Shown here piece after piece: positions 11,375-64,000 of a DNA stretch of 64,000 nt. The notes below the pieces were generated by a model. That model searched no databases and was not told the origin of the DNA. It saw only the letters and a list, made by a program, of their open reading frames with translations. Within the stretch, counting starts at the first letter, position 1, and every line of letters starts with the position of its first letter. Location of the stretch: contig DATHAA010000007.1 in NCBI GenBank assembly GCA_035296905.1, forward strand, positions 32,415 to 96,414, in the 5' to 3' direction. A program made the translations under genes and the position numbers. The stretch comes from Gaiellaceae bacterium. GTDB taxonomy: Bacteria > Actinomycetota > Thermoleophilia > Gaiellales > Gaiellaceae.

Positions 11375-11480
11375 CGTTCGTGCAAGCGCGTGCTCAGCTC
11401 CGCTCGTCTCCATGTCGATCTGGGGGCGAAGCGGTCGAGAGGGGTCGAACGCTCATCCCCACCTCGCGAAGACGAGCGGG

Positions 11481-11843: not shown

Positions 11844-11888
11844 ACGGTTAGCCGCTCCCCTGCGGTCACGCCTGCTCGCGGCCGCATC

Positions 11889-11993
11889 GACCTCCCAACG
11901 GGCTTGGCACCTCCGCAGGGCTACGTCTACCACTGCCACATCGTCGAGCACGAGGACGACGAGATGATGCGACCCTTCCGCGTCGTGAGCTGA
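11889..11993 (+). pseudogene. C-terminal remnant of a multicopper oxidase (CotA/bilirubin oxidase type)
   Basis: ..PPQGYVYHCHIVEHEDDEMMRPFRVVS* carries the C-terminal HCHxxxHxxxxM copper-binding motif. No upstream cupredoxin domains are present; the fragment abuts repeat L2. Confidence 0.6.
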
Positions 11994-12062
11994 GACGGCG
12001 GGTAAGGCGGCAGCGCGAAGAGCCGGGCGCCACACCGCCGAGCTCATCGAGCACCGAGGCGC

Positions 12063-12537: not shown

Positions 12538-12658
12538 CGACTCACTCGCATCTTGGAATCCGAGAGCGCCCCGATTCCCTGTGCGGATTAGTACATCTCC
12601 GGAGGGCATGCGAGATCAGCTCACGTAACCGGCCCGAACATGCCGGCGGCGGGCCGAA

Positions 12659-12852
12659 TCAACCGGACTCGATCAGCTCGACCCTGTAGCCGTCCGGGAA
12701 GCGCGTGCGCGCAAATTCATCCGCGCTCAATGAGCTCGACCCTGTAGCTGTCTAGGAGGCGTACGTTTATAAGTTGATGTCTCAGGCGCCGGGCTCCTCG
12801 ATCAGTTCAACCCGATAGCCGTCTGGTAAGAAAAGGTTGTCGAGCCCACAAG
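12659..12852 (-). repeat. VOC-tail composite repeat, locus L3 (units a-b-c)
   Basis: Minus strand: ..ARTRFPDGYRVELIESG*, ..LINVRLLDSYRVELIERG*, ..GLDNLFLPDGYRVELIEEPGA*. Collinear with L1. Confidence 0.8.
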
Positions 12853-12914
12853 TGGCCCGGCGCGATCGCTGACAGCTCTGGAATCAGAGACTCCCGCGTC
12901 GTACGCTTGGCATC

Positions 12915-14357: not shown

Positions 14358-16030
14358 CCAAGGTCGACGTACAGAGCCGAAGAGCGGTGCAAACGATCGA
14401 GCTGACGAGCAGCCCGATCGGCATCGCCTTTGCGGACGGGTCCGTCTGGCCGACTGCCGTGGCGACGCCGGTAAGCCATCGGGGCGGAGTCCTTCGTGTC
14501 GCGTTGAGCGGCCTTTCGGACTGCGAGTGTCTCGACCCCAAGGTCTCCTGGGACAATGGCGCTTGGCAGCTGATGGCGAACGTCTACGACGGGCTCGTCG
14601 GCTACAAACGCGTTGCTGGCGCGCTGGGCCGGTCTCTCGTGCCGGACCTCGCGCGGACCGTCCCGACCCCCACCGACGGGGGAAAGACGTACTCGTTCCA
14701 GCTGCGGCCAGGGGTTCGCTTCTCGAACGGCCGGGTCGTCCGGGCGAGCGACGTCCTGTACTCCTTCGAACGCCTCTACACGGCTGGATACCGCTACAAC
14801 CAGATCCCCTACTACGGGGGGATCGTCGGCGCGGAAGCGTGTGCGGGGGATCCGAGCTCGTGCGATCTCTCGGGCGGAATCGAGGCGGACGACACGACGG
14901 GCACCGTGACCATCCACCTGACCCAGCCGGATGGTGATTTCCTCTACAAGTTGGCCCTGCCGTTTGCCGCAATCGTTTCGGCGGAGAGCCCGCCTGCGAA
15001 GGACTCCGGACTCAACGTCGCCGGCACCGGACCGTACAAGCTGGCCCAGTACGACGGGAACGGCGTTCGGCTCGTCCGCAACCCCCACTTCCAGCCGTGG
15101 TCGCTCCAAGCTCAGCCGGCCGGTTATCCGGACGAGATCACGGCGATCCTTGGTCTATCCCCCGACGAGCAGCTCTCGGCCGTCATGAACGGCAAGGCCG
15201 ATTACACGAGCGAGCTTCCACCCGAACGGATCGCCGATCTTTCGACCCGCTATCCCGGGCAATTCCACAGCGATTCGATGACCGGCGTCTATTTCGTCTC
15301 ACTGAACTCGGCCGAGGCGCCCTTCGACGACGTTCGCGCTCGTCAGGCACTGAACTATGCGGTCGATCGGCGCCGCGTCGTGGAGCTCATGGGCGGCCCT
15401 GCGATGTCCCAGATCACCTGTCAGTTCCTGCCGCCGAACTTCCCGGGCTACGAGCCGCATTGCCCCTACACGTTCGATCCAAATCCGGCCGGAACGTGGA
15501 CGGCGCCCGACATCGCCCGGGCACGCCGACTCGTCTCCGCGTCCGGCACGAAGGGGATGCGAGTGGAGATGTTCGTGAAGCAGGACTGGGCAAAGGTCGG
15601 TCGGTACCTTGCGAGCGTGCTCGACGAAATCGGCTACGACGGCTCGTTGACGGTTTTCACGGACGACGAGAGGTACTTCGACGCCATCTACGCGAAGCAT
15701 CGCTATCAGGCGGCGATGAGCGGCTGGGTCGGGGACACGGGTCCGGCCAACTTCCTGCAGGTGAACTTCGGCTGCCCCGCCGCGGAGAACACCTCCAAAT
15801 TCTGCGATCCGAGGATCAGCGCTCTGATAGACCGGGCGGTGGACGCGCAGAGCGCGGAGAACGCCGTCAGTCTCGCCCCCTGGGCCGAGGCGGATCGTGC
15901 GCTCACCACCGTGGCGCCCGTCGTCCCGCTCTTCAACCCGCGCCGGACGGTTCTCCTCTCGACGCGAACCGGTAATTTCCAGTCACACCCCGAGTACGGA
16001 GCGCTCCTGGATCAGTTGTGGGTCCGCTGA
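14207..16030 (+). CDS. Final beta-propeller blade plus family-5 solute-binding protein domain (peptide/nickel SBP type); downstream part of the frameshifted fusion
   Basis: From about 14282 the frame reads GKNPRALAFGEGALWVANVDDGTLTKVDV (a continuing blade), then an SBP_bac_5-like body (LDP...WDNGAWQLMANVYDGLVGY, TYSFQLRPGVRFSNG, NPHFQPW). The first 25 codons of the listed ORF are probably not coding. Confidence 0.75.
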   Translation: MGRERSGRDRVQNQSESRQCHRRRAGGKNPRALAFGEGALWVANVDDGTLTKVDVQSRRAVQTIELTSSPIGIAFADGSVWPTAVATPVSHRGGVLRVALSGLSDCECLDPKVSWDNGAWQLMANVYDGLVGYKRVAGALGRSLVPDLARTVPTPTDGGKTYSFQLRPGVRFSNGRVVRASDVLYSFERLYTAGYRYNQIPYYGGIVGAEACAGDPSSCDLSGGIEADDTTGTVTIHLTQPDGDFLYKLALPFAAIVSAESPPAKDSGLNVAGTGPYKLAQYDGNGVRLVRNPHFQPWSLQAQPAGYPDEITAILGLSPDEQLSAVMNGKADYTSELPPERIADLSTRYPGQFHSDSMTGVYFVSLNSAEAPFDDVRARQALNYAVDRRRVVELMGGPAMSQITCQFLPPNFPGYEPHCPYTFDPNPAGTWTAPDIARARRLVSASGTKGMRVEMFVKQDWAKVGRYLASVLDEIGYDGSLTVFTDDERYFDAIYAKHRYQAAMSGWVGDTGPANFLQVNFGCPAAENTSKFCDPRISALIDRAVDAQSAENAVSLAPWAEADRALTTVAPVVPLFNPRRTVLLSTRTGNFQSHPEYGALLDQLWVR

Positions 16031-16087
16031 GCCGGCAGCCCGCCGCGAAGACGACTCGGGGCGGCGCGGCTCGGCTGGCGCCTTCGA

Positions 16088-16150
16088 TCAGCCGCGCTCG
16101 ATTAATTCAATCCTGTAGCGGTCTAGGAAGCGTACGGTGGTAAGTTGATG
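16088..16150 (-). repeat. VOC-tail repeat, locus L4 (chimeric a/b unit)
   Basis: The minus strand reads HQLTTVRFLDRYRIELIERG*. It is followed directly by tcaggcgcc, the stop region of the next gene. Confidence 0.7.
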
Positions 16151-16152
16151 AT

Positions 16153-16809
16153 TCAGGCGCCCTCGCCCTCGGCGGCCCCGTCGACCACCTCGGACTGTAG
16201 GTTCGCGTCCGTGGCCTGCTCAGGGGCCACGGCGGACGGGAACCGCACATCCGCCGCGCTCGCGACTTCCTCGACCCGCGTCGTGATTTCACGGATGTCG
16301 GCGAGGAGGCGACCGCGCTCTTCCTGAATCATGTCTGCATCGGCGCGAAGCTCATGCACCCGTGCCTCAGCCTCTGCACGCGACGCGGTGACCTCCGCCT
16401 GGCAGCGCTCGCGCTCTTTCGCAGCTTCCGCCCGCGCCTGCGCCACGGTGGCCTCCGCCTCCCCCTGTGAGCGGGCGAGGATGTCTTCCGCCGCGGTCTT
16501 CGCTTTGGCGACGATCTCCTCTGCCTCCTCGTTCGCGCGGGCGATTGTTCCTTCTGCGTCATGGCGCGCCGCGGTCGTGATCTCTTCGGCCGTCAACCCC
16601 GCCTGTTCGAGGAGGGCTCTTGTCTGCTCGCCCACCTGTTCAAGCGCGCGCTTCACCGCTGCCTCTGGTGAGCGCCTCAGCTCGAGCTCAGCGACGACCT
16701 GCTCGACGCGGTTCGCGTAGGCATCGACGGCGGCGCGGTCGTAGCCGCGAACCGACACGGGGAAGGTGGCCTTTCCGATTTCCTCGGCCGGGTCTCGCCA
16801 CTCCGTCAT
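16153..16809 (-). CDS. DivIVA-domain protein with long Ala/Glu-rich coiled coil (paralog 1)
   Basis: FPVSVRGYDRAAVDAYANRV (DivIVA N-terminal motif), then EAEEIVAKAKTAAEDIL.. repeats. ATG at 16809 is preceded by GAGGAG. The ORF maximum (17016) would overlap the upstream paralog. Confidence 0.75.
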   Translation of the reverse strand: MTEWRDPAEEIGKATFPVSVRGYDRAAVDAYANRVEQVVAELELRRSPEAAVKRALEQVGEQTRALLEQAGLTAEEITTAARHDAEGTIARANEEAEEIVAKAKTAAEDILARSQGEAEATVAQARAEAAKERERCQAEVTASRAEAEARVHELRADADMIQEERGRLLADIREITTRVEEVASAADVRFPSAVAPEQATDANLQSEVVDGAAEGEGA

Positions 16810-16894
16810 CTTCTCCTCTGGAATGGAGGACGCAGTCGGCTCGCTCGCGGGCTCAGAGGGCTGGTCGCTCGGCACTGCTCGAGTATGCCTCGCA

Positions 16895-17533
16895 CTAATG
16901 AAATTTGTCGCTGCGTGTTGTGTTCGCATCACGCTCCTCGCCATCTTCGTCGACGAAGTGCGCAACGGTTTCGTCCAGTCGCGTGGCGATGGCGCGAATG
17001 CCCGCGAGTACGTCACGGCGCTGGCCCCAGATCACATTCGTATCGATGCGAAGTGCCCGCAGCCGTGCCTCTGCTTCTTTGCGCATGACCTCGATCTCGT
17101 GCTCGGCGTGCGCGAGTCGGCGTGCTGCCTCCGTCACTGCGTCTGCCAGGATCCGCTCGGCCTCAGCTCCTGCCCTTGCGCAATGTTCGTCGGCCTCGAC
17201 CTTTGCCCGCTCCGCTTCATCGCCGGCAGTGACGACGAGATCGACCGCTTTCGCCCCGGCCGCCGAGGTGATCTGCTTCGCCTCTCGCCCGGCCGCAGCA
17301 ACGAGCTCGGCCGCCGCCTCCCGGGCGTCTCGCAAGATGTCGCTTCGCTGTTCCTCCGCCCGCTCGAAGGCGCGCTCGAGCACAGTCTCTGGCGAACGCG
17401 TCGCCTCGAGCTCGGCGATGAGGCGGTTCACGCGGGTGACGTAGACATCGACCGCCCGGCGCTCGTAGCCGCGACCGACAGTCGGGAAGGCGACCGTCCG
17501 GAGGTCTTGGGGGACGCGCGGCGGTTCCCTCAC
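16895..17533 (-). CDS. DivIVA-domain coiled-coil protein (paralog 2)
   Basis: FPTVGRGYERRAVDVYVTRVNRLIAELE, followed by an A/E/R-rich coiled coil. GTG start. Confidence 0.75.
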   Translation of the reverse strand: MREPPRVPQDLRTVAFPTVGRGYERRAVDVYVTRVNRLIAELEATRSPETVLERAFERAEEQRSDILRDAREAAAELVAAAGREAKQITSAAGAKAVDLVVTAGDEAERAKVEADEHCARAGAEAERILADAVTEAARRLAHAEHEIEVMRKEAEARLRALRIDTNVIWGQRRDVLAGIRAIATRLDETVAHFVDEDGEERDANTTRSDKFH

Positions 17534-17846
17534 GCTTGCCCCCTATTCTCGCGCGGGCAGGTCTGGGGCCTCCGAGTCGCGACCATCAGCCGCACGCGGG
17601 AACCCTACCCGCCGACTGGCCGGCACGTGGGAAGCCTAATCCCAGCGGCTCGAGCAGGCGGGAAACACGCTTTGGTGGCCCAGGCGCATCCTCAGACGAG
17701 CGGCCGTTCGTAGCCGCCTGCGACCTCCGCGACGAGTAGCCAAACGACGCTCTTCCTCACCCCGAAAAGGGAAATCCTCGTCTCACCCTTTCGCTGCAAT
17801 CAAGCCCTCTCGGCCCTGAGGAGCGGTCGCAAGGATCGCCTCAATT

Positions 17847-17908
17847 TCACGCGTCGCGCTGGTCAATCAGTTCAACCCGATAAGCCGTCCGGGAAGTCGC
17901 GTGCACGC
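17847..17908 (-). repeat. VOC-tail repeat, locus L5 (a-type unit with 1-nt insertion) abutting the gloA stop
   Basis: The minus strand reads ..FPDG(+1 nt)YRVELIDQRDA*. The junction gcgtgcacgcaaaattcatcc reproduces the a-b junctions of L1 and L3. Confidence 0.7.
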
Positions 17909-17913
17909 AAAAT

Positions 17914-18294
17914 TCATCCCCGCTCAACAAGTTCAACACGGTAGCCGTCCGGGTCGCGGACAAAACAGATGCGCGAGCCGCCCTCACGAACTGTGTACGG
18001 AGGCCGCTCCGGCGCGATGCCCTTCTTTTCCAACTGGCCGAGTGCTTCGTCGAGGTCGTCGACCGTCACGGCTATGTGTCCGTAGCCGGTGCCAATTTCG
18101 TATCCGGCCTCGGGTGTCTCAAAGTTGTACGTAAGCTCGAGCTCTGGGCCGTCCCGGCCCGGGACGCCGAGAAAATAGTTGACGGCTTCGTCGCGGATCG
18201 GGAGCTCGCGCCGTTTCTGGAAGCCGAGTGCCTCGTAAAAGGCGATCGACGCGTCCGGGTCAGTGACGCGGTAGCAGGTGTGGATCAGCTCCAC
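17914..18294 (-). CDS. gloA: Lactoylglutathione lyase (glyoxalase I), VOC superfamily
   Basis: MELIHTCYRVTDPDASIAFYEALGF...LELTYN...GYGHIAV...FVRDPDGYRVELVERG; 126 aa, typical small GloA. Confidence 0.85.
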   Translation of the reverse strand: MELIHTCYRVTDPDASIAFYEALGFQKRRELPIRDEAVNYFLGVPGRDGPELELTYNFETPEAGYEIGTGYGHIAVTVDDLDEALGQLEKKGIAPERPPYTVREGGSRICFVRDPDGYRVELVERG

Positions 18295-18802
18295 GTGCCG
18301 AGCGTACTACGAACGACTCCTGACGCGAGAAGAATTGGCGGCTCCCAACGTAGCGTCACCGGCTCTCGCCCTCTTCGCAAGAACAGCGAGCGCCTACACG
18401 GTAAGGAAGGGCTCGACGGTGCGAGTCCGTCAGAGGGCTTGCCGAACCCGCCGCAGATGGCGGGTGCGGGCGCTCCTCCTCAGCGGTGCTCAGCCAACCT
18501 TCCTACGTGTCGAGCTCGGTGGCGGGCACGGTGAGACGTCGACCGTATCCGAGGAGGCGCTCTGGTGGCCGCCAGGCAAGATCGTTGGCCACTACCTGAG
18601 CCCCTTCCTCGCCAGCCTCGGCATCGCCGAGGTTCATGATGAGGACGAGGACGTCCTCCGCGTCGAGATCGATGCGGCCACTGCGCATGAGCGCCGACTC
18701 GTAGGCGCAATCCGTACTAGCCCGAGGAGCAAGACGGCGTTTTCCCCGACGACGCCCGTACGCGCTGGCGCCACCCTATAGACGAAGCGAAAGGAGCACA
18801 CT

Positions 18803-19210
18803 GTGAAGACGGAATTCGCAGCGGAAACGCCCGTCAGCCTCGTCATGACGAGAGATTTCCTCACCGCCGAGCCGTGGGACACGCTCGGCGAAACGGCTGA
18901 AAGAATGACCCAGTCGGCCTACGGCTCGGCGCTCGTGATCGACGCAGGGCAACTCGTTGGCATCCTTACCTCACGCGACCTCGTGCGTGCAATGGCGGGT
19001 CGGACACACTCGAGCGAGGCGCGCGTGCGCGAGTGGATGACGTCGAACCCGCGCGTTGCTCGTCCCGAGACAGCCGCCGAGGAGGCCGGACTAATCATGG
19101 TCGAACAGGGCTGCCATCACCTGCCGGTCGTGGACGAGAACGGCCGGCCACTCGGCCTCGTGGGAATGCGGGCCGTCGTCTCCGAGACATTCGAGCCGGT
19201 CCTCGATTAG
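18803..19210 (+). CDS. CBS-pair domain protein
   Basis: Two CBS motifs (VMTRDFLTAEP...GSALVIDAGQLVGILTSRDL, and MTSNPRVARPET...HHLPVVDENGRPLGLVGMRAV). GTG start preceded by AAAGGAG. Confidence 0.85.
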   Translation: MKTEFAAETPVSLVMTRDFLTAEPWDTLGETAERMTQSAYGSALVIDAGQLVGILTSRDLVRAMAGRTHSSEARVREWMTSNPRVARPETAAEEAGLIMVEQGCHHLPVVDENGRPLGLVGMRAVVSETFEPVLD

Positions 19211-19213
19211 ACC

Positions 19214-19558
19214 TCAGAGGCCACTGGCTTCGTCACCGGAGTCGGCGAAAGCAGTACGGCTCGCGACGAGCGTCAGAGCCCTATCCGGCACACGCCCGGG
19301 GTCGCCTACCGCGGCCAGAGCTGATTCATGCTGTCGAGCGGGCCTATCGGAAACCTGTAGCTGCTCGAGCTCGTAGGAGTCGACGCCGAAGCTGTACGTG
19401 AGCTGCAGGCGGTCGCCGTCCGCGGGCAGGCCCATGAAGATGTTGATCGCCTCGTCGCGAATCGGAAGCTCGCGGCGCTTCTCGAACCCGAGCGCCTCTT
19501 AGAACGTGACCGAGCGGCCGGGGTCGGTGATTCGGTAGCAGGTGTGGATCAATTCCAT
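19214..19558 (-). pseudogene. Glyoxalase I paralog inactivated by an in-frame TAA and loss of C-terminal similarity
   Basis: The minus strand reads MELIHTCYRITDPGRSVTF*EALGFEKRRELPIRDEAINIFMGLPADGDRLQLTYSFGVDSYE, with the stop at 19499..19501. Beyond about codon 70 the sequence no longer resembles GloA. Confidence 0.8.
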
Positions 19559-19662
19559 GGCGCGAGCCTAACGCACGCAGCCTGCTCGCCCGGCCGCCGG
19601 CAAAGACCCGTCCACGCCCGCCCTGCGTATGCGTGGGCAAACCTCGAGGGAAGGGAGACGGG

Positions 19663-20148
19663 ATGAAGAGGCTCTTCGCAATCCTGGCCGCGGTCGTCGT
19701 CTTGGCCGCAATCGGAGTGACGGCAGCGATCTCGAGCGGGGACGGGCGCACAGTCCTCAAGTTCGACACGATGGCGCCGGTGGTGCCGCCCTACACGGGC
19801 GCGACAAACCCGATCCGGGGCGTGCACGGCGGTGGGGTGCCGTGGAAGCTCGAGTCCGCGCAGGGGAGGCTGCGCGCCGACGGACGCCTCGACATCGAGG
19901 TAGAGGGCCTCGTGCTCGTCTCCACGGGCGCGAACCCATCGCCGACGTTCAAGGGAGTCGTGAGCTGCCTCTCCTCCAATGCCGCAGGCGAGCCGACGAC
20001 AGTAAACGTGGCCACGGATCCGGTGCCGGCGACGATGACCGGAAACGCCGAGATCGACGCGAAGGTGGCGCTGCCGTCTCCGTGCTTCGCCCCGATCGTC
20101 TTCGTGACGTCGGGCGGCGGCAACTGGTTCGCGGTCACCGGCCGCTGA
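19663..20148 (+). CDS. Secreted hypothetical protein
   Basis: MKRLFAILAAVVVLAAIGVTAA signal/anchor. SD-like AAGGGAG upstream of the ATG at 19663. Two Cys residues. No family recognised. Confidence 0.6.
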   Translation: MKRLFAILAAVVVLAAIGVTAAISSGDGRTVLKFDTMAPVVPPYTGATNPIRGVHGGGVPWKLESAQGRLRADGRLDIEVEGLVLVSTGANPSPTFKGVVSCLSSNAAGEPTTVNVATDPVPATMTGNAEIDAKVALPSPCFAPIVFVTSGGGNWFAVTGR

Positions 20149-46416: not shown

Positions 46417-47844
46417 CTAGGGAGTGACTGCGGCGAAGGCATCGACGATGCCGTGGCCGTACAACCCGTTGTAGCCCTCGCCACCCTGGCAGGCGGTCGG
46501 GTCGGGCGGGCACGCCACCTCGGTCGCCGTCTGCTGGAGGTAGGCCTGGACGCGCCCGGGCCTCATCGCCGCGTCTCCGCTTCTCAAGTCTCCGTAGCGG
46601 CTGACGATGAGCGCGGCGACGCCGCTCGCGTGGGCCGCGGCCATCGAGGTACCCGCCATGAAGCGGTAGAACGCGGGACCCGGTGCGGCGGGATCCTGAA
46701 GCAGGCGAGGAACCTGGAGCGCTGCCGGCCACGTCGAGAGCACAAAGCCTGCGGGCGGGGCGGGAACCGCATCGCCGCCGGGAGCTGCCACGTCCGTGAA
46801 CCCGACGCCGTAGTTCGAGTAGCTCGCCTTCTCGCCCGACAGAGCGGTCGCGCTGACGGCGATGACTCCTGGGAGCTCGCTCGGCAGGCGGACGCACTCG
46901 TTGCCGAGCGGAGGATGGGCAAGGTCGATGTTCGAGTTCCCCGCCGAGGCGACGACGCTCACGCCACTCTTGAGCGCGTAGCGGACCGCGCGCTTGACCG
47001 CTTTGATGAGCGGCTGCTGCACCGCGTCGTTGTGGCAGAAGAAATCGAGGGGATCTCCGGCCGTGGTCGCGCCGACATCGATGGTGTAGCTGTTGTTCGT
47101 CACATCGATGCGGTGCGTCGCCGCCCACATGAAGCCGCAGATAACAGCGGCGGGCGTGATGAGGCCGCTCGGCTGTGCCACCTTGATGGATGCGATCTTC
47201 ACGTTGGGGGCTACGCCGACGATCCCGATCCCGTTGGAGGCCGCGGCGATCGAACCTGCGTTGTGCGTCCCATGGCCGTTGTCGTCCTGGTAGGCAGTCG
47301 GATTCGTGTCCGGGACCCCGGTCACGCAGGAGGCGCTGTCGGCGAAGTCCATGTTCTGAGCAAGATCGGGATGCGTGAAGTCGATCCCGGAGTCCAGCAG
47401 GCCGACGACAACGGCGGGGCTTCCCCCCGTGATGGCATGAGCGTCGGGTGCGTGAATCTGACGCATGTTCCACTGCAGCGACGAGAACGTGTCCGCGTCG
47501 GTCGCGGGCACGTTCGGGAGCTCTCCGTCCCACTCGGTCGAATCGTGCTCGAGCCCGAAGGTGAGACCGGAAAGCGCCGACACACCGTCGACCTTGTTGT
47601 CGCCCGCCAAACTCGCCGCGAAGCCCGCGTTGGGCGAGTCGGCGAGTGCCACTCCGATATCGTTGTACGACCGCACGAGCTGACCGCCGGCCCGCTCGAT
47701 CGCAATCGCCGCCCCCTTGGGGACGTCCTCGCTCTTGTAGACCACGAGGTAGCGCTCCGCACCAGCCGCGCTCGTGAAGGCGAGCGCAAGTGCTGCGATC
47801 AAAGCGCCTAGGCAAAGGCGCGCCACTCGTCCCGGTTGCCGCAA
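46417..47844 (-). CDS. Secreted S8 (subtilisin-family) serine peptidase with I9-like propeptide
   Basis: Signal peptide, then propeptide YLVVYKSEDVPKGAAIAIERAGGQLVRSYNDIGVA. Catalytic triad contexts are GLLDSGID, HGTHNAG and GTSMAAAHASG. TTG start preceded by GGAGGAGAGG. Confidence 0.9.
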   Translation of the reverse strand: MRQPGRVARLCLGALIAALALAFTSAAGAERYLVVYKSEDVPKGAAIAIERAGGQLVRSYNDIGVALADSPNAGFAASLAGDNKVDGVSALSGLTFGLEHDSTEWDGELPNVPATDADTFSSLQWNMRQIHAPDAHAITGGSPAVVVGLLDSGIDFTHPDLAQNMDFADSASCVTGVPDTNPTAYQDDNGHGTHNAGSIAAASNGIGIVGVAPNVKIASIKVAQPSGLITPAAVICGFMWAATHRIDVTNNSYTIDVGATTAGDPLDFFCHNDAVQQPLIKAVKRAVRYALKSGVSVVASAGNSNIDLAHPPLGNECVRLPSELPGVIAVSATALSGEKASYSNYGVGFTDVAAPGGDAVPAPPAGFVLSTWPAALQVPRLLQDPAAPGPAFYRFMAGTSMAAAHASGVAALIVSRYGDLRSGDAAMRPGRVQAYLQQTATEVACPPDPTACQGGEGYNGLYGHGIVDAFAAVTP

Positions 47845-47952
47845 AGCTAACCTCTCCTCCGCTCGGTCCTTCTCCGACGGGCACTTGCCCGCACACGCAC
47901 TTTACGGCGGACTTTAGGTCCACGCGTCCCTCAATAGAGTGAGCCGTCCCGG

Positions 47953-49266
47953 TTAGAAATTTACCCGCAAAACGACTGCTTTTCGGGTCGACGGCGTCCA
48001 CATCGTCACATAGGCCATTCGGCCCGTTAGCGCCGTCGTCCAAAGAAGAGTCTTTCGTCCGCTCACGTGCATGAGCGTTTTCGTCCGCTTGCTCCCGAAC
48101 CACTTCATCCGCAGATACGAGCCCCGCGAGCGGTGCTCGACCCAGACGATGCGCCGCGAGCTCACGGATGGGTTCGCCTCCATCCAGACGTCGGTCTGCT
48201 TGATCACGCGCCGCTTGTTCGTCGCGAGCTCGAGCACGTAGATCGACGAGCCGCCGCTGGCGATCCGGTGCCAGGCGAGACGGCCGCCGCGAAGCGCCGG
48301 CCGGCCGAGGTCGGCTGCGCTGTGCACGGAGGCAATGTTCCGTTCTTCGAGGTTCGGCTTGCTGATATCTGCGAGGACGAGGCGCTCGTGTGCACCGTCG
48401 TCGCGGATGTAGGCGAGCAGCGGGTAGTCGAGCGCCGGATGTGAATAGGGCCCGTCGAGCTCGAGCACGGGGGAGTCGTTGCGCCAGTCGATCACCTTGA
48501 TGCCCTCGTCGTCCTCGTAGGCGAGGTAGGCGCCGTCGAGCGCGGGGGCGTCCGCCGGGCTCACCGTGTCGGTCGGGTCCGGGGCGGGCGGCACCACGAC
48601 CACCTTGATCGTCCCGGAGTCCATGCGGGCGCGTGCAAACGTCTGCCCATCCGCGGCCGGGTCGAAGCCGCGGCCAAGCGAGGTGACAGCGGCGCCGGCG
48701 GCCGGAGCGAGGGCGAGCAGGACGACCGCGAGCCCGAGCACGACCGCGTTCGCGCGCGAGACGAAGGACGCGCGTCCGACGAGTCTCTCGACGGCGGCGG
48801 GGCCGCTCGGCTCTCGGTGCCGGGGCCAGACCGCCATGAACGCGCGGCCGGCTCCGTAGAGCGCGAAGCAGGCGGCGGCGGCCGCGGGGTTCCCGAGCGC
48901 GAGCGCCACGGCGCACGCGACCCAGAACGTGGCGACCGGCTGGAAGGTGAGGAAGCCGAGGCCGAGTCCCGCCCCGTAGCCGGCGCTCCACAGGGGCAGC
49001 GGCAGCTCGTACTGCCAGCGCTCCGGCACCTGCCTCCTGGACTGCGGGATCGGCATGCGGAGGATTCCCGCCTCACGCAGGGCGGCCAGGAAGGCGAGCG
49101 CAGCGGCCGCGATCAGCGCGGGCCGGGTGCCGACGAGGCTTCCCACGAAGCCGAGCGTCGCCCCGAGGGCAGCCGACGCGACGACCGCCGCGAGGGCGAA
49201 GAGAGCGATTGCGAGCCGTTGGCGGGAGCGGCTCCCGCACACGGCGGGAGTGAAGGTCTCGACCAT
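47953..49266 (-). CDS. Polytopic membrane domain fused to an extracytoplasmic beta-propeller-like repeat domain (function unknown)
   Basis: About 5-6 hydrophobic helices in residues 1-190. Five repeats follow with the pattern (G/Y)xx(L/I)A(Y/W)... (DGAYLAYEDDEGIKVID, DYPLLAYIRDDGAHERLVLADI, RGGRLAWHRIASGGSSIYVLEL, SSRRIVWVEHRSRGSYLRM, LTGRMAYVTMWTPSTRKAVVLRV). GAGGA lies upstream of the ATG. Confidence 0.7.
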   Translation of the reverse strand: MVETFTPAVCGSRSRQRLAIALFALAAVVASAALGATLGFVGSLVGTRPALIAAAALAFLAALREAGILRMPIPQSRRQVPERWQYELPLPLWSAGYGAGLGLGFLTFQPVATFWVACAVALALGNPAAAAACFALYGAGRAFMAVWPRHREPSGPAAVERLVGRASFVSRANAVVLGLAVVLLALAPAAGAAVTSLGRGFDPAADGQTFARARMDSGTIKVVVVPPAPDPTDTVSPADAPALDGAYLAYEDDEGIKVIDWRNDSPVLELDGPYSHPALDYPLLAYIRDDGAHERLVLADISKPNLEERNIASVHSAADLGRPALRGGRLAWHRIASGGSSIYVLELATNKRRVIKQTDVWMEANPSVSSRRIVWVEHRSRGSYLRMKWFGSKRTKTLMHVSGRKTLLWTTALTGRMAYVTMWTPSTRKAVVLRVNF

Positions 49267-49340
49267 GGAGAATCCTCAGGGCGACCAGGCGCCCGAGACT
49301 CCGGCGAGGAGGGCCGTTGCCGCGAGCGCGGCGGCAACGG

Positions 49341-49874
49341 CTAGCACTTGAGCCCCGAGTCGTAGTAGAGGACGCAGAACACGCGCCTCCCGTCGAAGCA
49401 GTAGCCCGTCAGAGACGCATCGCCGTTGATCCGCTTCTTGCTGTAGGAGCAGCAGTCCACGAGCTTCCGCACCTGGCCGTTGCAGCAGCGGTACCACGCG
49501 CCCTGCATGACGCCGCCGATCCTGTAGTGCTCGTTCGTCCAGTCTTCGCAAAGCCGCGTGCGCGGGGCACGCGGGAGAAAATCGCCGTCAGGCGAGCGCA
49601 GTCGGTTGCCCGAGCCGTCAACAGCCCAGCCCGCGGAGTTGACCGCCCGGCCGAGATTGTCGATCGGATGTCCGTCGCTTGGCCGGAGCGGAAAGCCGTT
49701 TTTGTCGATGCGCGGGAGGCCTAGTGGGTTCAGGCACGACCCGGTCGTCCAGATGTGCCCGCAGAAGTGAAACGCCTCGCTCTTCTCGGGACGCACCGCT
49801 GCGGCGACCGCCGCTCCTCCCGTCGCGGCGAGCACCGCCCCGCCCATGCGTCCGAGGAAGGACCTCCTGGTCAT
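49341..49874 (-). CDS. Tat-signal, Cys-rich protein resembling the methylamine/aralkylamine dehydrogenase light chain (MauA-like)
   Basis: MTRRSFLGRMGGAVLAATGGAAVAAA twin-arginine signal. The mature part has 10 Cys, including C..W...C, AWYRCC and VDCC patterns reminiscent of MauA. Located directly after a mauE-mauD-like gene. This is the tail of track ORF 49341..51080. Confidence 0.65.
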   Translation of the reverse strand: MTRRSFLGRMGGAVLAATGGAAVAAAVRPEKSEAFHFCGHIWTTGSCLNPLGLPRIDKNGFPLRPSDGHPIDNLGRAVNSAGWAVDGSGNRLRSPDGDFLPRAPRTRLCEDWTNEHYRIGGVMQGAWYRCCNGQVRKLVDCCSYSKKRINGDASLTGYCFDGRRVFCVLYYDSGLKC

Positions 49875-49926
49875 CCCCGAGGCCAGGCGGGTCGAGAGTG
49901 CCCGGGCTGCGCCGTCGAAGAGCGCG

Positions 49927-50796
49927 TCAGGCCGGCGCATGTTCCATCCTGGCGGAGCCAAGCGCGACGAGACCGTCGAGTTGCTCGAGCGAGTTGACCG
50001 TGCCCTTGGCAGCGACGACCCCCTCGACGACGTGGACGAGGAACGGCGTCCCAGGAACGCTCCAGCGCTCGAACACGGAGGGCTCCTCGTGCTCGTACAC
50101 GGTTCGCACGGGCATTCCTTCGCGCTCGAAGGCCCGAATCCCCGGCGCGATCGCGCGGCAGAGGCGGCAGTCGGCGCTGAAGAACGCGACGAGCTCGTCT
50201 CCGACTCGGCTGAGGCCCTCGAGCTCCGGGGCGACGTCTCCCAGGGGCGGGCCCTCCTCGGCGAGCTCGAGCGCGACGCCGGGCCCGAGGCGCATCGTGA
50301 GCACGCCCACCTGGCGGTAGAGCGCGAGCACGAGCGCAGCCAGCGCGAAAACGGCGAGGCCGAGGACCACGAGTGCCGCGAAGACGATCGCATCGTTCGA
50401 CGGCCGGCCGACCTCGACGTGCGCGAATGCGCCGAACGCCGCGATTCCCGTGAAGAGAACGGCGCGGCCGAGAAGAAGATCGGTGCTGCGTTCCCTGGCG
50501 CCGAAGCAGCCGCAGCGGAGCCGGCGCACCCCGCGGGCGCGGACGCTCGCCAGCGCGCCGACGAAAACGACCCCCAGGGCGACGGCCGCGACCGCAGCGG
50601 CCCGGACGCCCGCAAGAAGAAGGATGCCCGTCGCGAGCTCGATCCCCGTCCACGCGGCGAGCGCGGCGCCGCGCCAGCGCGGGGACACGCCGTACGGCGC
50701 CAGGAACGACGAGTCTCTGGACAGGAGCTTCGACACGCCCGCCCACAAGAGGGCGACCGCGACGACCAGACGGGCGATGAGGTCGAGCGACAACAA
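49927..50796 (-). CDS. MauE-like membrane protein fused to a MauD-like thioredoxin-fold domain
   Basis: N-terminal 4-TM MauE/DoxX-like part (LVVAVALLWAGVSKLL...), an extra TM helix, then a thioredoxin-like domain with FFSADCRLC (CxxC). The C-terminal KGTVNSLEQLDGLV resembles the MauD GLVNxxExLExL ending. Confidence 0.7.
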   Translation of the reverse strand: MLSLDLIARLVVAVALLWAGVSKLLSRDSSFLAPYGVSPRWRGAALAAWTGIELATGILLLAGVRAAAVAAVALGVVFVGALASVRARGVRRLRCGCFGARERSTDLLLGRAVLFTGIAAFGAFAHVEVGRPSNDAIVFAALVVLGLAVFALAALVLALYRQVGVLTMRLGPGVALELAEEGPPLGDVAPELEGLSRVGDELVAFFSADCRLCRAIAPGIRAFEREGMPVRTVYEHEEPSVFERWSVPGTPFLVHVVEGVVAAKGTVNSLEQLDGLVALGSARMEHAPA

Positions 50797-59474: not shown

Positions 59475-60194
59475 CTAGAGGATCCCCCGGTCCTCGAACG
59501 CGCCACGGGTGGCGTTGGCCGCCGAGTTCCCGTAGAGGCTCCGCGCAGCAGCCACGGTCGCACTGGCCGCGGCCGGCATGGAAGTGTCGGGCGCGAACGA
59601 GAACTGCGCCTCGAGGATGCGCGTGTCCGCCTTCACGTGGCCGAGCGCGCCGCGAATGTCCCACAGTGCGCGCGACGCGAACACGTTCGAGACCGTGGCC
59701 GCCCAGTAGTCGCCGAAGCCCTCTCCGATCGAGCCGGCCTCGGCTGACGTGCCGAAGGTTCCGTCGGGCTGCTGCCATTCTTGAATCGCGTGCCCGTACT
59801 CGTGCAGGATCACCTCGGCGTCCTCGGCGTCCTCGGCGTCGTCGACGCCGCCCTTGCCGAAGCGAACGACGTCATGCTTGTCCCACGAGTACGAGTTGTC
59901 GATCCCGATCTGGTCGATGCGGATGTCCTGCGACTGCTCATTGACAGGACGACGCGCGAGGCCGAAGCCGAGGCTTTGGATGTACGTCTGGGCCGTGGTG
60001 ACCCAGTAATAGGCCATCACCTGCTCGAAGCGGTCGTCGTCGCGCGTGTACAGGAACGAGTTCGTCGAAGAGAACGCCGCCTTGCCGGTGTTGCTGCGGA
60101 CGTTGGCCCAGTCGCCCTGGAGGTACCCGCTCCCGTCGAGGTTGGTGAGGGTCACCGTCCGGTACGCGGGGTTGCAGCGCCGCGTAGTTCGCAT
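59475..60194 (-). CDS. Clan MA zinc metalloprotease domain (thermolysin/fungalysin-like); the N-terminal region is probably disrupted
   Basis: HEYGHAIQ (HExxH) followed by SIGEGFGDYWA (third-ligand Glu region). An SD-preceded TTG at 60350 encodes a signal peptide in the same frame but is separated from this ORF by TGA (60207..60209); see findings. Confidence 0.65.
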   Translation of the reverse strand: MRTTRRCNPAYRTVTLTNLDGSGYLQGDWANVRSNTGKAAFSSTNSFLYTRDDDRFEQVMAYYWVTTAQTYIQSLGFGLARRPVNEQSQDIRIDQIGIDNSYSWDKHDVVRFGKGGVDDAEDAEDAEVILHEYGHAIQEWQQPDGTFGTSAEAGSIGEGFGDYWAATVSNVFASRALWDIRGALGHVKADTRILEAQFSFAPDTSMPAAASATVAAARSLYGNSAANATRGAFEDRGIL

Positions 60195-60408
60195 CCTTCT
60201 GGTCGGTCAGCGACTGATCTTGCAGGGTCGCAATTGGATTCGGCGAGAGACGCGGCCCGACCCGGTCGACGGGCTCGGCCCCGCGCCGGCCGGCTGGAGG
60301 ACGACGACGGCGACCGTCGCCGCGATGAGCAAAGCTGAAAAGCGCCGCAAAAGAACCTCCCTGTGGTCCCGAAAACGGACCGCAGCGTAGCGCGCCCGGC
60401 GAAAAGGC

Positions 60409-61419
60409 CTAGCTGGCCGCGCGGGTTTCGACGCCTAGCAACGTGCGGGCACCGCCCGCGGCCTTCGCGCGATAGGCGGCGATATCCGCCGAGCGGTAAA
60501 GGTCGTACGAGGAGCCGAGGTTGATCGCTGCCCGGGCGACGCCGCCCGAGAAGCTGTACGGACCGCGTTGGTTGAGCGCTTCCTGCGCCCGCTCGGCGAC
60601 CTTGATCGCATCGTCCGGGTTGGCACCCGGAAGGATGACCGCGAACTCGTCTCCGCCTAGTCGACAGGCGACGTCTCCGCCGCGCGACGACTCGACCAGG
60701 GACTCTGCGAGAGCGCGGAGCGCCTCGTCGCCGGCCGGGTGGCCGCCGAGGTCGTTGATCCGCTTGAGACCGTCGAGGTCGACGACGAGCAGGCTGAGCT
60801 CCTCGCCGTTGCGCTGGCTACGGGCAACAGCTGCGTCGAACTGCTCCTCAAAGAGACGGCGGTTGTAGAGGTTGGTGAGCTTGTCGCGCGCGGCGAGCTC
60901 CTTCATCTCCTTGTAGAGCATTGCGTTCTGCACCGCGGGCGCGACGACGTTGCAAAGCGCCTGGCAAAAGTCCACGTCGGCGGCGTCGAACTCCCGGTCG
61001 AGCTGGTCGACGACCTCCATCATTCCGATCGTCTCGCCCCCTGTGATCAGCGGGAGCATGAGCAGGGCCTTGCGGTCGCGCGCCTCGAGGAGCGCGCGTT
61101 CGGCGGGGTCGTCGTTTTCGTTCGAGACGCGGATCTGGATCGGCTCCTGCGTCTCGAGCACTTGCTTTGTCGCCGGGAAGTCGACGAGCCGGTAGATCTG
61201 GCCGCCCTCCTCGGTGATCTCGTTCGCGCCCTCGAGGTACTCGACCAGCATGATCAGCTCGTCCCGTGCGTTGTCCCAGAAGGAGATCTCGGCCGCGGTG
61301 GCGCCGGTGAGCTCGGTCGCCTGGTCCGTAAAGGCACGCAAGACCTCGCTCAATTCAAGGGTCGAAGAGAGCTTGTGAGAGACGTCGAGCAGCGCCTGAA
61401 GCCGGTTTGCCGGAGCCAT
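60409..61419 (-). CDS. GAF domain - GGDEF diguanylate cyclase
   Basis: N-terminal GAF-like domain, then DKLTNLYNRR and the RLGGDEFAVIL active-site motif; 336 aa. Confidence 0.88.
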   Translation of the reverse strand: MAPANRLQALLDVSHKLSSTLELSEVLRAFTDQATELTGATAAEISFWDNARDELIMLVEYLEGANEITEEGGQIYRLVDFPATKQVLETQEPIQIRVSNENDDPAERALLEARDRKALLMLPLITGGETIGMMEVVDQLDREFDAADVDFCQALCNVVAPAVQNAMLYKEMKELAARDKLTNLYNRRLFEEQFDAAVARSQRNGEELSLLVVDLDGLKRINDLGGHPAGDEALRALAESLVESSRGGDVACRLGGDEFAVILPGANPDDAIKVAERAQEALNQRGPYSFSGGVARAAINLGSSYDLYRSADIAAYRAKAAGGARTLLGVETRAAS

Positions 61420-61493
61420 ACGGGACTTATCGGGATTCGGGGCGAAACGCTTGAGAGTGGCTAGGATCGGTGGATCTCAGGGAGGGAGAGGGC

Positions 61494-61650
61494 GTGCAAG
61501 CGACCGTTATCCACGAAGGCGGCGGCCGGAAGTCCTCAAGTACGAAGAGATCCCCGACCCCACTCCGGCCGACGGTAGGTGCTCGTCCGGCTCGAGGCCG
61601 CGGGGATCAACCACTTCGACCTCAACCAGCGCCAGCAACGCCCCTCTTCT
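61494..61650 (+). pseudogene. 5' remnant of a zinc-type alcohol dehydrogenase / quinone oxidoreductase gene, multiply frameshifted
   Basis: Pieces in three frames join as VQATVIHEGGG / PEVLKYEEIPDPTPADG / VLVRLEAAGINHFDLNQRQ, the canonical MDR/Qor N-terminus. No continuation is recognisable. Confidence 0.55.
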
Positions 61651-62373
61651 TCCCCTTGCCCAAAAGGTGTTTCTCTTCTCGCCCAAATTCCCATCCGGGG
61701 GGAAAGCTGCTAGATCGGGCGCTGGACGCCTAACTCGTGCCACGTAAAAAATGAGACACGAGGCGTTGGGTCCAAAACCACACCACTCGGAGGGTTCCAT
61801 CCATACTGGCGCCAGCCGCTGAGTCGATATGCCGGTCGCAGGATGAGCAAGGTTCCGGCTCGGATTTGGCTACGCCCCCGTTGCGGGCAAGCGCGAGCGC
61901 ATCGTCCAGAGCTCTGACGAGAGCCGCTCGGCGTCACCACCCACTCGGCCAGACAGTGTCGTATGAGGCAACGACCGGCGACATCATCTTCGACTAAGCG
62001 GTGCGGTTGAACCGGCGTTGGAAGGTCCGCGCGAGGAAGGTGCGCGGAAAGCGCATGCCTCGGTACGTCCGGGTCGCACCTCAGGTCTTGCTGCGTGCCC
62101 CCGGGCGTACTAGGGTTGTGGCCTGCGGCGGAGGAGGGTCCCGTTTCTCCCGCGAGAGCCGCTGCTTCGGCGCCGGCGCCCCGGCCTCCTCCGCCCAGCC
62201 ATTTGTTACGTCATGCGGGGCCGAACCGCCGTTTCCCCTTTCGCGCTGCCGACGTCGCGCGCGCTTGGTCGGCAGTGCGGGTTCGATCCGACCCCGCACT
62301 ATTAGATCGGCAAGATCGGCGCCGCTCTTACTACTTCCGCCCGAGCAGCCGAGCGACGGAGGGGATCGCCGCC

Positions 62374-62817
62374 TCACCTCGCTCGTCCGAAGAAGACGAG
62401 CTCCTCTGTATCGAGTACCTCACCGGTGTTCACGTCGGTGGCCGTCGCGACCCAGATTTGGTCCTGCTTGATCCCGATGAATTCGTCATGGGGAACGAAT
62501 CTCTCGACGAGCGTGCAGCTCTCGCCGGGTGCAAGGACAGCCGGCTCAAAGAGCGTGCAGGTGCTCTCAACAAGACCACCTGCGAAGTCGTCCCACGAGC
62601 GCACCAGAGTGAGGGTTAGGAGGACCGCCTCGTCGCTCGTGTTGCTGATTGTGGTGAACTTGATCGTGGACGACTCGACGGGCTTCGCCCCGAAGTTGAC
62701 CGTCCGGGGCGTCACCTGCAGGACATTGCCAGAAGCGAGCCCGCTGGCCGGCACTGCAGCCAGCGCAGCGAGGGCGACGGCGACGGCGACGGCGATGATG
62801 AAGCATCTCAGTCTCAT
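62374..62817 (-). CDS. Secreted single-domain beta-sandwich protein (choice-of-anchor D / ASH-like)
   Basis: Signal peptide MRLRCFIIAVAVAVALAALAAVPASG. Then LQVTPRTVNFGAKPVESSTIKFTTISNTSDEAVLLTL...C..F.P.VLAPGESCTLVERFVP, the typical pattern of this domain. Start at the internal ATG 62817. Confidence 0.6.
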   Translation of the reverse strand: MRLRCFIIAVAVAVALAALAAVPASGLASGNVLQVTPRTVNFGAKPVESSTIKFTTISNTSDEAVLLTLTLVRSWDDFAGGLVESTCTLFEPAVLAPGESCTLVERFVPHDEFIGIKQDQIWVATATDVNTGEVLDTEELVFFGRAR

Positions 62818-62854
62818 GGCTGCCTCCTCAGTCGCAGCATTGAGGCAACCGTAT

Positions 62855-63625
62855 CTAACTCGTTCGCAGAAATCGAGATCGAAAGCGCCGTTGCAGCGTG
62901 CTTGGGATGGCGTCCTCGTCGCTGACCGGGATCCGTTGCCAGGTGTTTCCGTAGTCAAGACTCACATGGAGGAACAGACGGTCATGGTTCCGCTCCGCCA
63001 GGGCCATGCGCCCCGGTTGCAGCCATCCGTCGGGGAACCAGTCGCATGCATGTAGGCGCGGTCCCAGCCTTCCCCGCAGTCGACTCGGCGTTCCTTGAAG
63101 TTGCCATCGGTGGCCCAGGAGACCGAGCAGCTGCGGTCGACGAACCACAGGAACTCGTCGACGTTCGGTCCTCAGTAGCGAGCGACGATCGTGGACGGAT
63201 CGTCGGGAAGGAGATGCGGCACATCCAGCGGCCGTATCGTGCCTTCGCGCTCGTCGATGAGGTAGACGTGCTCGAAGTGGTCCCCAGTACCGGCCGTTGG
63301 CGCCCACGATGAAGAGGGCGGAGCGCCCGTCCTGAGTCACCTCCAGCGCCGCATGCTGGTACGGGACTCGGAGCGGAGGATCGCTTTTGCATGCGGAGCG
63401 GGGTCCGTCGCACACAACGTAAGCGCGCGTCGTGAAGCCCGACTCGGTCACCGTCTGGTTTTCCGGAGAGCCCTCGGCGCGGATCCGCTCGAGCGACCAC
63501 AGCTCGTCGGTCGAGGGCGCCGCCTCCCTGCCGTCGCTCCCGGCGCTGCGGACAGCGTCCACGATCGCCACAAGAGCGACGGCAGCGACACACGTCACGC
63601 TGAGCCATCTGAACGCAAGCCGCAT
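62855..63625 (-). pseudogene. Secreted BNR-motif protein disrupted by two frameshifts and an in-frame TGA
   Basis: Signal/anchor MRLAFRWLSVTCVAAVALVAIV. Coding-like sequence continues in another frame after the C4 run at 63282..63285 (HFEHVYLIDEREGTIRPLDVPHLLPDDPSTIVARY-TGA-GPNVDEFLWFVD), then returns to the first frame (SLDYGNTWQRIPV matches the SxDxGxTW BNR motif). Confidence 0.6.
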
Positions 63626-63940
63626 TCGATCGCCCGAGCATAAAGACGCGCCGTTCGGACTGACAAGAGCCACTTTCTGCAGGAGTCAGCCGTCCGCTAC
63701 GTCGACGGCGGCGGCGACGTGCTGCTCGTGCCTGACTCGGAGCTCGCCACCGTCTGCCGCAGACACAATCCGCGCGGCGGCTAGGACGGGCGGAACCTGT
63801 ACGGAAGGACGCGGGGTGCGACCGGAACTTTTGGCTCGAGGGGCTGAATGCTCACGGCCCTACGAATGGATGCGGGAACCTGAACACCGACGAAGGTGTA
63901 TGACGACTGCTAGAGCTGGCAGCGTCCGGGAGGTACACGA

Positions 63941-64000
63941 ATGAAAAAAGTCGCCCTCATCCCCCTCGCAATCATGCTTTTGAGCGCGCTTTGCCCTGCG
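63941..64000 (+). CDS. Start of a secreted protein or lipoprotein (partial; continues past the window end)
   Basis: ATG at 63941 preceded by GGGAGG. MKKVALIPLAIMLLSALCPA looks like a signal peptide with a possible lipobox Cys. Confidence 0.4.
   Translation, partial: MKKVALIPLAIMLLSALCPA

Follow-up and report, generated by a model that had tools for sequence, protein, structure and literature searches.

A mau-like three-gene cassette with a candidate selenocysteine codon in Thermoleophilia

A stretch of 64,000 nucleotides (nt) from a Gaiellaceae bacterium (assembly GCA_035296905.1, contig DATHAA010000007.1, positions 32,415 to 96,414; the whole stretch is called the window here, and its GC content is ∼0.70) raises the question of what genes resembling the light-chain and accessory genes of methylamine dehydrogenase (MADH) clusters are for, when neither the heavy chain MauB nor MauG is found near them. 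Four co-directional minus-strand open reading frames (ORFs) are present at 46417-50796, as the initial annotation described, and it read them as one mauE-mauD-mauA-like system together with an S8 peptidase. The conserved unit is three genes (MauE-MauD, a cysteine-rich protein, and a MauF-propeller protein), not four. In the account that we favor on balance, and whose grade applies to its parts jointly, 47953-50796 is a translationally coupled operon conserved across class Thermoleophilia and is a diverged relative of the mauF/E/D/A part of MADH clusters, with a third gene predicted from sequence profiles and structure models to code for a MauF-like polytopic domain fused to a six-bladed beta-propeller. 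The genes are as follows.

49927-50796, minus strand: MauE-MauD fusion, 289 amino acids (aa), from Pfam MauE and BLASTP against MauD
49341-49940, minus strand: precursor of a 10-cysteine protein exported by the twin-arginine translocation (Tat) pathway, 199 aa, a candidate remote member of the MauA superfamily, from homologs and the NCBI record
47953-49347, minus strand: MauF-like membrane domain plus six-bladed beta-propeller, a revised gene of 464 codons including one UGA, from translation, hhalign, AlphaFold2 (AF2), and Foldseek

Three genes form the conserved unit

The window proteins were compared by tblastn with 80 loci, each from a different species and all from Thermoleophilia (Gaiellales and Solirubrobacterales); ORFs were clustered in 57 long loci, and the loci sampled reach ∼8 kb around the cassette. 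The MauE/D, cysteine-rich, and membrane/propeller genes lie side by side in one fixed order in essentially all 80 loci, and the synteny holds where identity to the window is low (33 to 39% for MauE/D and 26 to 31% for the membrane/propeller protein, with the cysteine-rich protein still at 55 to 60%). The triad is present in 54 to 55 of the 57 clustered loci and is the only gene set universally common to them, the next most frequent gene occurring in no more than 27; the other neighbors (nadA, nadC, fpg, MOSC, pnt, and ABC) are housekeeping genes limited to subclades. The four-gene unit first proposed is thus sound for these three genes but not for the S8 gene, which lies outside it. The cassette is also carried by the complete Thermoleophilia chromosomes OY970203.1 and OY970337.1. 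Start and stop codons overlap at both junctions, the cysteine-rich gene (start at 49940) overlapping the MauE/D stop by 14 nt and GTG 49347 of the third gene overlapping the terminal TGC-TAG (last cysteine codon and stop) of the cysteine-rich gene, which argues that all three genes are translationally coupled. NCBI labels the first gene product 'MauE/DoxX family redox-associated membrane protein' and the other two, of 199 and 437 aa, each 'hypothetical protein'; NCBI proteins HLM92359-61 are from the metagenome-assembled genome that holds the window. A single JGI contig of 9.2 kb codes for an apparent one-ORF fusion of MauE, MauD, and the cysteine-rich protein (P0124, 453 aa), which may be genuine or may result from a frameshift, many 50%-cluster representatives being visibly frameshifted.

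The first gene was proposed to be a MauE-MauD fusion, and this is borne out by the Pfam MauE match (PF07291; 53.9 bits versus a cutoff of 27, E 2.8e-14) and by a BLASTP alignment of residues 136-277 with full-length Paracoccus denitrificans MauD (E 1e-11, 28% identity over 177 columns). The MauD alignment takes in the transmembrane (TM) anchor, the RQVG and GPxxGDxAPE linker motifs, and the CxxC; tblastn matches to MauD in relatives extend down to 5e-17, and the MauD equivalog level of TIGR02661 is not reached (26.7 bits versus a cutoff of 188.6). A MauE domain of four helices is joined to the TM anchor of MauD and to a thioredoxin-like domain, and K23, E53, C95-G-C97-F98-G99, and C210xxC213 are kept in at least 95% of 52 orthologs. 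Two motifs mark the presumed redox sites.

50506-50514, minus strand: CGC (CXC) active-site motif of the MauE domain, C95-G96-C97, from sequence and conservation; motif defined in bioRxiv 10.64898/2026.03.05.709764
50158-50169, minus strand: CRLC (CxxC) motif of the MauD-like thioredoxin domain, from sequence, MauD alignment, and conservation

In its sequence features the fusion is akin to disulfide oxidases of the DsbB/DsbA type. MauE complements a dsbB deletion by way of a periplasmic CXC site followed by Phe-Gly, for which CXC mutants are reported, and is described as a DsbB-like oxidase with conserved Lys and Glu and frequent fusion to thioredoxin-fold partners (bioRxiv 10.64898/2026.03.05.709764). 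The window protein shares the CXC-F-G, the Lys and Glu, and the thioredoxin-fold fusion.

The third gene had been described as coding for a 437-aa membrane and propeller-like protein, and structure prediction agrees: no Pfam family covers it, and the AF2 model (predicted local distance difference test [pLDDT] 83, and >90 in the propeller) combines a helical membrane domain with a beta-propeller whose best Foldseek match is the TolB six-bladed propeller (E 1.2e-8), among 544 propeller matches with E ≤0.001.

47956-48690, minus strand: six-bladed beta-propeller domain, presumed extracytoplasmic, from AF2 (pLDDT >90, 23 strands) and Foldseek (TolB)

The initial annotation overlooked the relationship of the membrane part to MauF. 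The profile of the 437-aa family aligns with P. denitrificans MauF at hhalign probability 96 (E 4.2e-9, 118 columns, 35% identity), including the PQxRxQVP...YGxxLGLxxLT core, and BLASTP of a Solirubrobacterales ortholog aligns its WSPCG with that of MauF. MauF is a required yet functionally blank gene of MADH clusters and is not otherwise known outside mau clusters. P. denitrificans MauF matches no Pfam-A or NCBIfam model, and Pfam assigns no family to MauF or the MauF-like domains, nor any DsbD/CcdA match, so a CcdA-like role for MauF would be speculation. The propeller has no sequence similarity to MauB and no sequence relation to the propeller-like proteins of the Thermomicrobium locus described below.

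With homologs of MauF, MauE, and MauD, the cassette has all three small-subunit accessory genes (mauF, mauE, and mauD) plus a substrate in the MauA position, and it is a new form of mau maturation cassette. The E-D-A order noted at the outset agrees with the mauFBEDACJG cluster of P. denitrificans (L002), which has in common with the cassette the MauE, MauD, and MauF homologs, a Tat substrate whose unusually long leader is of the same kind and whose gene directly follows mauD, and, by inference for the cassette, a propeller protein as partner. The cassette differs in having MauE and MauD fused and in having MauF joined to a six-bladed TolB-like propeller rather than standing beside the seven-bladed MauB, and its loci are without MauG, amicyanin, MauJ, MauM, and MauN.

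An in-frame TGA in the MauF-like gene

The bounds first given for the third gene, 47953-49266, do not hold: the called start at 49266 is internal, and the revised gene starts at GTG 49347 and reads through a TGA that had also been overlooked. The frame in the window is GTG(49347)-LAVAAALAATALLAGVSGAWSP-TGA-GFS-M(49266)VETF..., with the two elements below.

49276-49278, minus strand: in-frame TGA, candidate selenocysteine codon (residue 24 of the revised protein) in the motif WSP-U-GFS, from the TGA/Cys distribution and codon entropy
49232-49250, minus strand: hairpin CUCCCGC-CGUGU-GCGGGAG resembling a selenocysteine insertion sequence (SECIS), its stem beginning 26 nt after the UGA and with GU in the loop

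Solirubrobacterales orthologs carry at the N terminus an additional TM helix that ends in [WF]SPCG[FL]S, and Paracoccus MauF has WSPCGYS at the same place. A survey of the window and 81 related loci found TGA at this position in the window and 60 of the 81, a cysteine codon (TGC or TGT) in 19, and no MauF domain in 2. UGA is used by most members of the Gaiellales type and cysteine codons by members of the Solirubrobacterales type, and the TGA type falls into two subfamilies, WSP-U-G[LF]SM.ET and WSP-U-SLSMVGT. Entropy by codon position is 0.44/0.25/0.99 bits for the 15 codons upstream of the TGA and 0.28/0.00/1.44 bits for the three that separate the TGA from the annotated ATG; this period-3 pattern on both sides points to protein-level conservation in one frame across the UGA.

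A conserved RNA structure follows the codon. Across 34 sequences the hairpin has 95.8% of cells paired, with compensatory changes in three of the seven pairs, a result reached by 0 to 1 of 500 shuffles (slid controls, 40 to 81%), and RNAalifold recovers the same helix. In two loci (L013 and L015) a synonymous CCC-to-CCG change is matched by GGG to CGG at the cost of a Gly-to-Arg substitution, and in a third (L088) the 'Cys' codon inside the stem is a His codon, so the invariant TPAVCGS of the protein alignment (A2) looks constrained as RNA rather than as protein. The second TGA subfamily has a different invariant stem, CGGCAC-CGUG[CA]-GUGCCG, 14 nt downstream of the UGA, and shares the CGUG loop; an apical-loop GU is the known determinant for SelB.

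The alternative is that TGA 49276-49278 is a true stop that separates a 23-residue TM peptide from a 437-aa protein reinitiating at ATG 49266, with no selenocysteine. An ATG (GTG in L088) stands four codons after the TGA in all TGA-type members, and gene callers pick ATG 49266; further, no tRNA-Sec was detected in the window or 50 loci, as expected for so small a sample, and no Rfam SECIS model matches in the window or at the UGA, which counts against selenocysteine. Folding of the single sequence at the UGA is not distinctive (z −1.3), the comparative analysis alone being informative. The equivalent of Met 49266 is also present in the Cys-type proteins, which makes it ancestral rather than a newly evolved start; the three codons between TGA and ATG vary only at third positions, which is not expected of an untranslated spacer; the TGA falls exactly at the column of a conserved cysteine; and two different hairpins with GU-containing loops lie downstream at SECIS-like distances, with compensatory changes that override amino acid identity. 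We therefore consider a true stop very unlikely, and the third gene probably codes for a selenocysteine-containing membrane protein.

The in-frame UGA at a conserved cysteine, a GU-loop hairpin at the usual distance, and Cys orthologs in sister lineages are shared with bacterial selenoproteins of the thiol oxidoreductase type; a polytopic MauF-type membrane protein and the lack of an Rfam match set this one apart. Such an exchange of selenocysteine and cysteine at WSP-C-G would mark the residue as a redox-active catalytic site of MauF. The searchable literature holds no description of this MauF-type family as a selenoprotein and, apart from the 2026 MauE preprint, nothing relevant on selenoproteins in Thermoleophilia, on MauF, or on tryptophylquinone in Actinobacteria. 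Gene callers systematically truncate the third gene at the TGA, and correction would add a selenoprotein family; the selenoprotein reading would also imply selenium use in a group, the Thermoleophilia, that is abundant in soil.

Two further observations concern this region. The invariant N-terminal peptide MVETFTPAVCGS of the annotated 437-aa proteins (A2 columns 1-13) is largely explained by the hairpin and the upstream frame. Some Cys-type loci (L046, L053, and others) have a GC-rich inverted repeat 20 to 50 nt after the TGC, roughly at the position of the hairpin in TGA-type members; in L046 it reads GGCCCCGCGG-CCACA-CCGCGGGCC, with a loop that lacks GU, and such repeats could be fossil SECIS elements or just GC-rich coding sequence.

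The exported cysteine-rich protein and MauA

The cysteine-rich gene that the initial annotation placed at 49341-49874 exists, but its start lies upstream: the true start is ATG 49940, giving 199 aa, in agreement with homologs (199 to 200 aa) and the NCBI record. The family is large yet narrow in range, with 1511 homolog clusters at 90% identity, all unnamed and labeled as hypothetical proteins, none carrying a Pfam domain, and 236 clusters at 50% identity among 1.8 billion representatives; it occurs in at least 557 species genomes. In 86 sequences, conservation is at least 97% for the ten cysteines and for G61, H62, W149, D162, N172-G-D174, and Y180. The mature part has ∼150 residues and includes an extra N-terminal domain of ∼70 residues (FCGHxWTT...PRID...PRT).

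The leader gives the clearest connection to MauA.

49791-49940, minus strand: long Tat leader of ∼50 residues, with the N-terminal helix DALFDGAARALSTRLA, the motif TRRSFLGR, and a hydrophobic region, from hhalign and a leader hidden Markov model (HMM)

It aligns with the leaders of MauA and AauA at hhalign probability 95.5 (E 1.6e-8) over 39 columns that span the helix preceding the RR and the Tat motif, and the top NCBIfam match of the protein, TIGR02659, covers leader residues 5-39 only (E 0.014). An HMM built from seven proteobacterial MauA leaders and run on the 10,346 stop-to-stop ORFs that the window and 81 loci yield retrieves 81 of the cysteine-rich proteins (best E 9e-8), and the best other match (E 0.015) is apparently a frameshifted copy of the same gene. 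These profile matches argue that the leader is specifically homologous to MauA leaders.

Resemblance to the MADH light chain was initially proposed for the whole protein; it applies to the leader, but for the mature domain Pfam, TIGRFAM, and PDB HMMs do not recover it. A significant HMM match of 49341-49874 to the light-chain family had been set beforehand as a test, and for the mature domain there is none, as it matches neither PF02975 nor any other Pfam family at E values up to 10, in the window protein or in 13 family members. Nor does it have a significant match, profiles included, to TIGR02659 or to any PDB chain, and the PDB profile search did not find a chain of MADH or of aralkylamine dehydrogenase (AADH). 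Compared with canonical MauA, the mature domain scores 18.3 in hhalign, within the range of shuffles (mean 13.4, maximum 25.4). The AF2 model is poor (pLDDT 57) and its Foldseek search against PDB returned only noise. By HMM criteria, the protein is not a member of the MADH light-chain family.

A more distant relationship is suggested by the PF02975-bearing proteins of the Thermomicrobium type, which are themselves clearly MauA-like (probability 99.1). The C-terminal core of the mature part scores 26.5 against them in hhalign, and 200 column shuffles have a mean of 12.5, a standard deviation (sd) of 2.3, and a maximum of 20.3 (∼6 sd); the hhalign probability is only 28%, which again tells against the relationship. 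In this weak profile alignment GAW149YRCC pairs with GSW57YMCC, VD162CC with ID76CC (C163-C164 with C77-C78), GY180C with NW108C, and FC189V with VC121T, and both groups end in a C-terminal cysteine. The position aligned with Trp108 is thus Tyr180 rather than Trp, at the conservation given above. The small protein is probably a very remote member of the MauA superfamily that has retained the quinone-bearing Trp57, Asp76, and the Cys-Cys hairpin and in which, again probably, an invariant Tyr replaces the cross-linking Trp108. Relative to P. denitrificans MauA it is distinguished by that Tyr, by its extra N-terminal domain, by its failure to match PF02975 and TIGR02659, and by ten invariant cysteines in place of the twelve (six disulfides) of the MADH and AADH light chains.

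The proteins of the Thermomicrobium roseum type (PF02975; L003 and P0391-P0403) form a small family of 13 clusters. Shared with the cassette are a terrabacterial lineage and the W-x-x-C-C, DCC, and C-terminal Cys motifs, as well as a MauE fused to a propeller-like domain nearby and no MauG in the 12 kb examined. Unlike the cassette protein, they keep both tryptophans of tryptophan tryptophylquinone (TTQ) and the N-terminal CxxW...GGS...CPxG, pass PF02975, and have no MauA-type leader helix. The T. roseum plasmid locus (L003; NC_011961.1) is a second terrabacterial arrangement of MauA with no MauG in the 12 kb examined. It has two PF02975-type MauA-like genes, at ∼696-1148 and ∼5850-6294, the second of which is unannotated; the MauE with the C-terminally fused propeller-like domain is at 6323-8113, and paralogous hypothetical proteins of 403 to 456 aa and a redoxin are encoded nearby.

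Whether the cassette might be part of a split locus for an ordinary MADH or AADH, with mauB, mauG, and the electron acceptor elsewhere in the genome and the small protein forming normal TTQ, depends on these features and on the neighboring genes. MauB, MauG, amicyanin, and CxxCH motifs were initially reported as missing locally, and the searches concur. MauB and MauG have no tblastn match in the 64-kb window or within the ∼8 kb around the cassette in 81 related loci, the same is true of amicyanin except for one weak cupredoxin in L025, and no CxxCH occurs in window ORFs of at least 80 aa in six frames. These searches were confined to the window and loci, which leaves room for a split locus, and the MauE/D/F and leader homologies fit one. 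The invariant Tyr at the Trp108 position, 10 rather than 12 cysteines, the extra N-terminal domain, failure against models that even the divergent Thermomicrobium proteins pass, and the lack of MauB and MauG across so many neighborhoods speak against it, and we consider an ordinary split-locus enzyme extremely unlikely. Canonical TTQ is itself unlikely because of the Tyr at the Trp108 position and because there is no MauG nearby.

Proposed function and neighboring genes

In the mau-derived account, which we regard overall as somewhat more probable than its alternatives combined, the small protein would be exported by Tat and then folded oxidatively on the outer side of the membrane, where the MauE-MauD fusion would oxidize its ten cysteines. 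MauE would act as a DsbB-like, quinone-linked disulfide generator through its CXC site, with MauD as the membrane-anchored thioredoxin-fold partner. The MauF-like domain would add a redox step through its selenocysteine or cysteine residue, in processing or redox upkeep of the small protein, and this step could be reduction, isomerization, or maturation chemistry. The small protein would then dock on the membrane-tethered propeller for retention or as a scaffold, a role that falls to the soluble heavy chain MauB in the periplasm; the S8 peptidase would be unrelated. Monoderm cells lack a periplasm, and the cassette could represent a periplasmic two-subunit design adapted to them by fusing the partner to the membrane. 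The mau E/D/F/A parts would then be an independent module without MauB and MauG, which bears on the evolution of TTQ enzymes and on the existence of other tryptophan-derived cofactors.

Two further points stand against this account. The propeller gene of two loci (L047 and L067, the latter being chromosome OY970337.1) has no MauF domain, just a signal/anchor sequence and the propeller; these loci may mean that the obligatory partner is the propeller and not MauF, or their MauF may have its gene at another place. Finally, if MauE is a generalist oxidase, its adjacency to the cysteine-rich gene could be incidental.

The last point leads to a reading of the cassette as a housekeeping oxidative-folding locus, with the fusion as a general DsbB/DsbA equivalent and the cysteine-rich protein as a mere abundant substrate or neighbor that has no link to MauA and has convergent motifs. 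MauE has been argued to be a generalist, as MauA accompanies MauE in only ∼10% of the species that carry MauE, and 8.2% of MauE proteins have a fused thioredoxin-fold domain (bioRxiv 10.64898/2026.03.05.709764), and the missing light-chain HMM match of the mature domain accords with this. The window gene departs from such a generalist in having a specifically MauD-like fusion partner, with a match to MauD itself that includes the TM anchor and the RQVG and GPxxGD motifs rather than to a generic thioredoxin, and in being locked to a dedicated substrate and a MauF-like gene. The leader is specifically MauA-like, a MauF homolog is fused into the third gene, and the three genes are translationally coupled and universally linked, all of which makes a housekeeping locus fairly unlikely.

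A bolder version of the mau-derived account makes the 10-Cys protein the catalytic small subunit of a new MauG-independent enzyme of quinoprotein-like or cross-linked-cofactor type, with a Trp149-Tyr180 pair, held on the membrane-tethered propeller and matured by way of a selenocysteine-containing MauF. We judge this unlikely; if true, it would add a new cofactor of protein origin and settle the redox function of MauF, which has long been unknown. Of the uncharacterized small redox protein system initially proposed, the mau-derived character, the Tat substrate in the MauA position, the membrane-tethered propeller, the uncharacterized status, and the local lack of MauB, MauG, and amicyanin stand, but the part assigned to an S8 peptidase in the manner of QhpE does not.

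46417-47844, minus strand: secreted S8 peptidase, a neighbor only, from Pfam S8

The presence of a secreted S8 peptidase was correctly recognized (Pfam S8, 176 bits), and the protein carries a Sec-type signal peptide and a propeptide. If it were a QhpE-like protease dedicated to the leader or the maturation of the small protein, it would complete a four-gene hybrid of MADH and quinohemoprotein amine dehydrogenase (QHNDH) systems. Such a scheme can draw on its position, co-directional and 108 nt downstream of the cassette with no terminator-like site between (the promoter/terminator scan was uninformative), and on a weak match to the QhpE model (E 1.3e-7). That match is 31 bits against a cutoff of 165, and a mycosin model scores better; QhpE is cytoplasmic, at odds with the signal peptide and propeptide of this protein. 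More than half of the loci have no downstream S8 gene: it is present in 21 of the 57 long loci, all from a Gaiellaceae subclade sharing ABC, MOSC, and PntAB synteny. Even among the closest relatives (L011 and L012) the occupant of the slot varies, with 46 to 48% identity as against 88 to 98% for the flanking genes, and no radical-SAM CX3CX2C motif occurs in window ORFs of at least 120 aa. The S8 peptidase is a neighbor and not a component of the cassette, and we consider a four-gene scheme extremely unlikely.

The maturation system of QHNDH (QhpC/QhpD/QhpE/QhpG) resembles the cassette in having a small cross-link-rich redox subunit with dedicated maturation genes, and a subtilase is nearby in the window. 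It differs in that the window lacks a radical-SAM motif and the S8 protein is secreted, not conserved with the cassette, and not QhpE-like; the cassette is not a QHNDH-like system. The S8 slot is locally variable, with different paralogs at L011:10199-11326 and L012:10197-11324, and one related contig holds two S8 genes.

The composition of the window varies along its length, with a GC content of 0.64 to 0.67 at ∼6000-20000 and 60000-64000 and of ∼0.70 elsewhere, and between 11.4 and 19.5 kb few ORFs have a third-position GC content above 0.8. The low-GC parts code for TrkH/TrkA, an ion channel, a SBP_bac_5 solute-binding protein, and a DivIVA-like protein, as well as a beta-propeller of the Vgb-lyase/SGL type at 12915-14357 that is unrelated to the propeller of the cassette.

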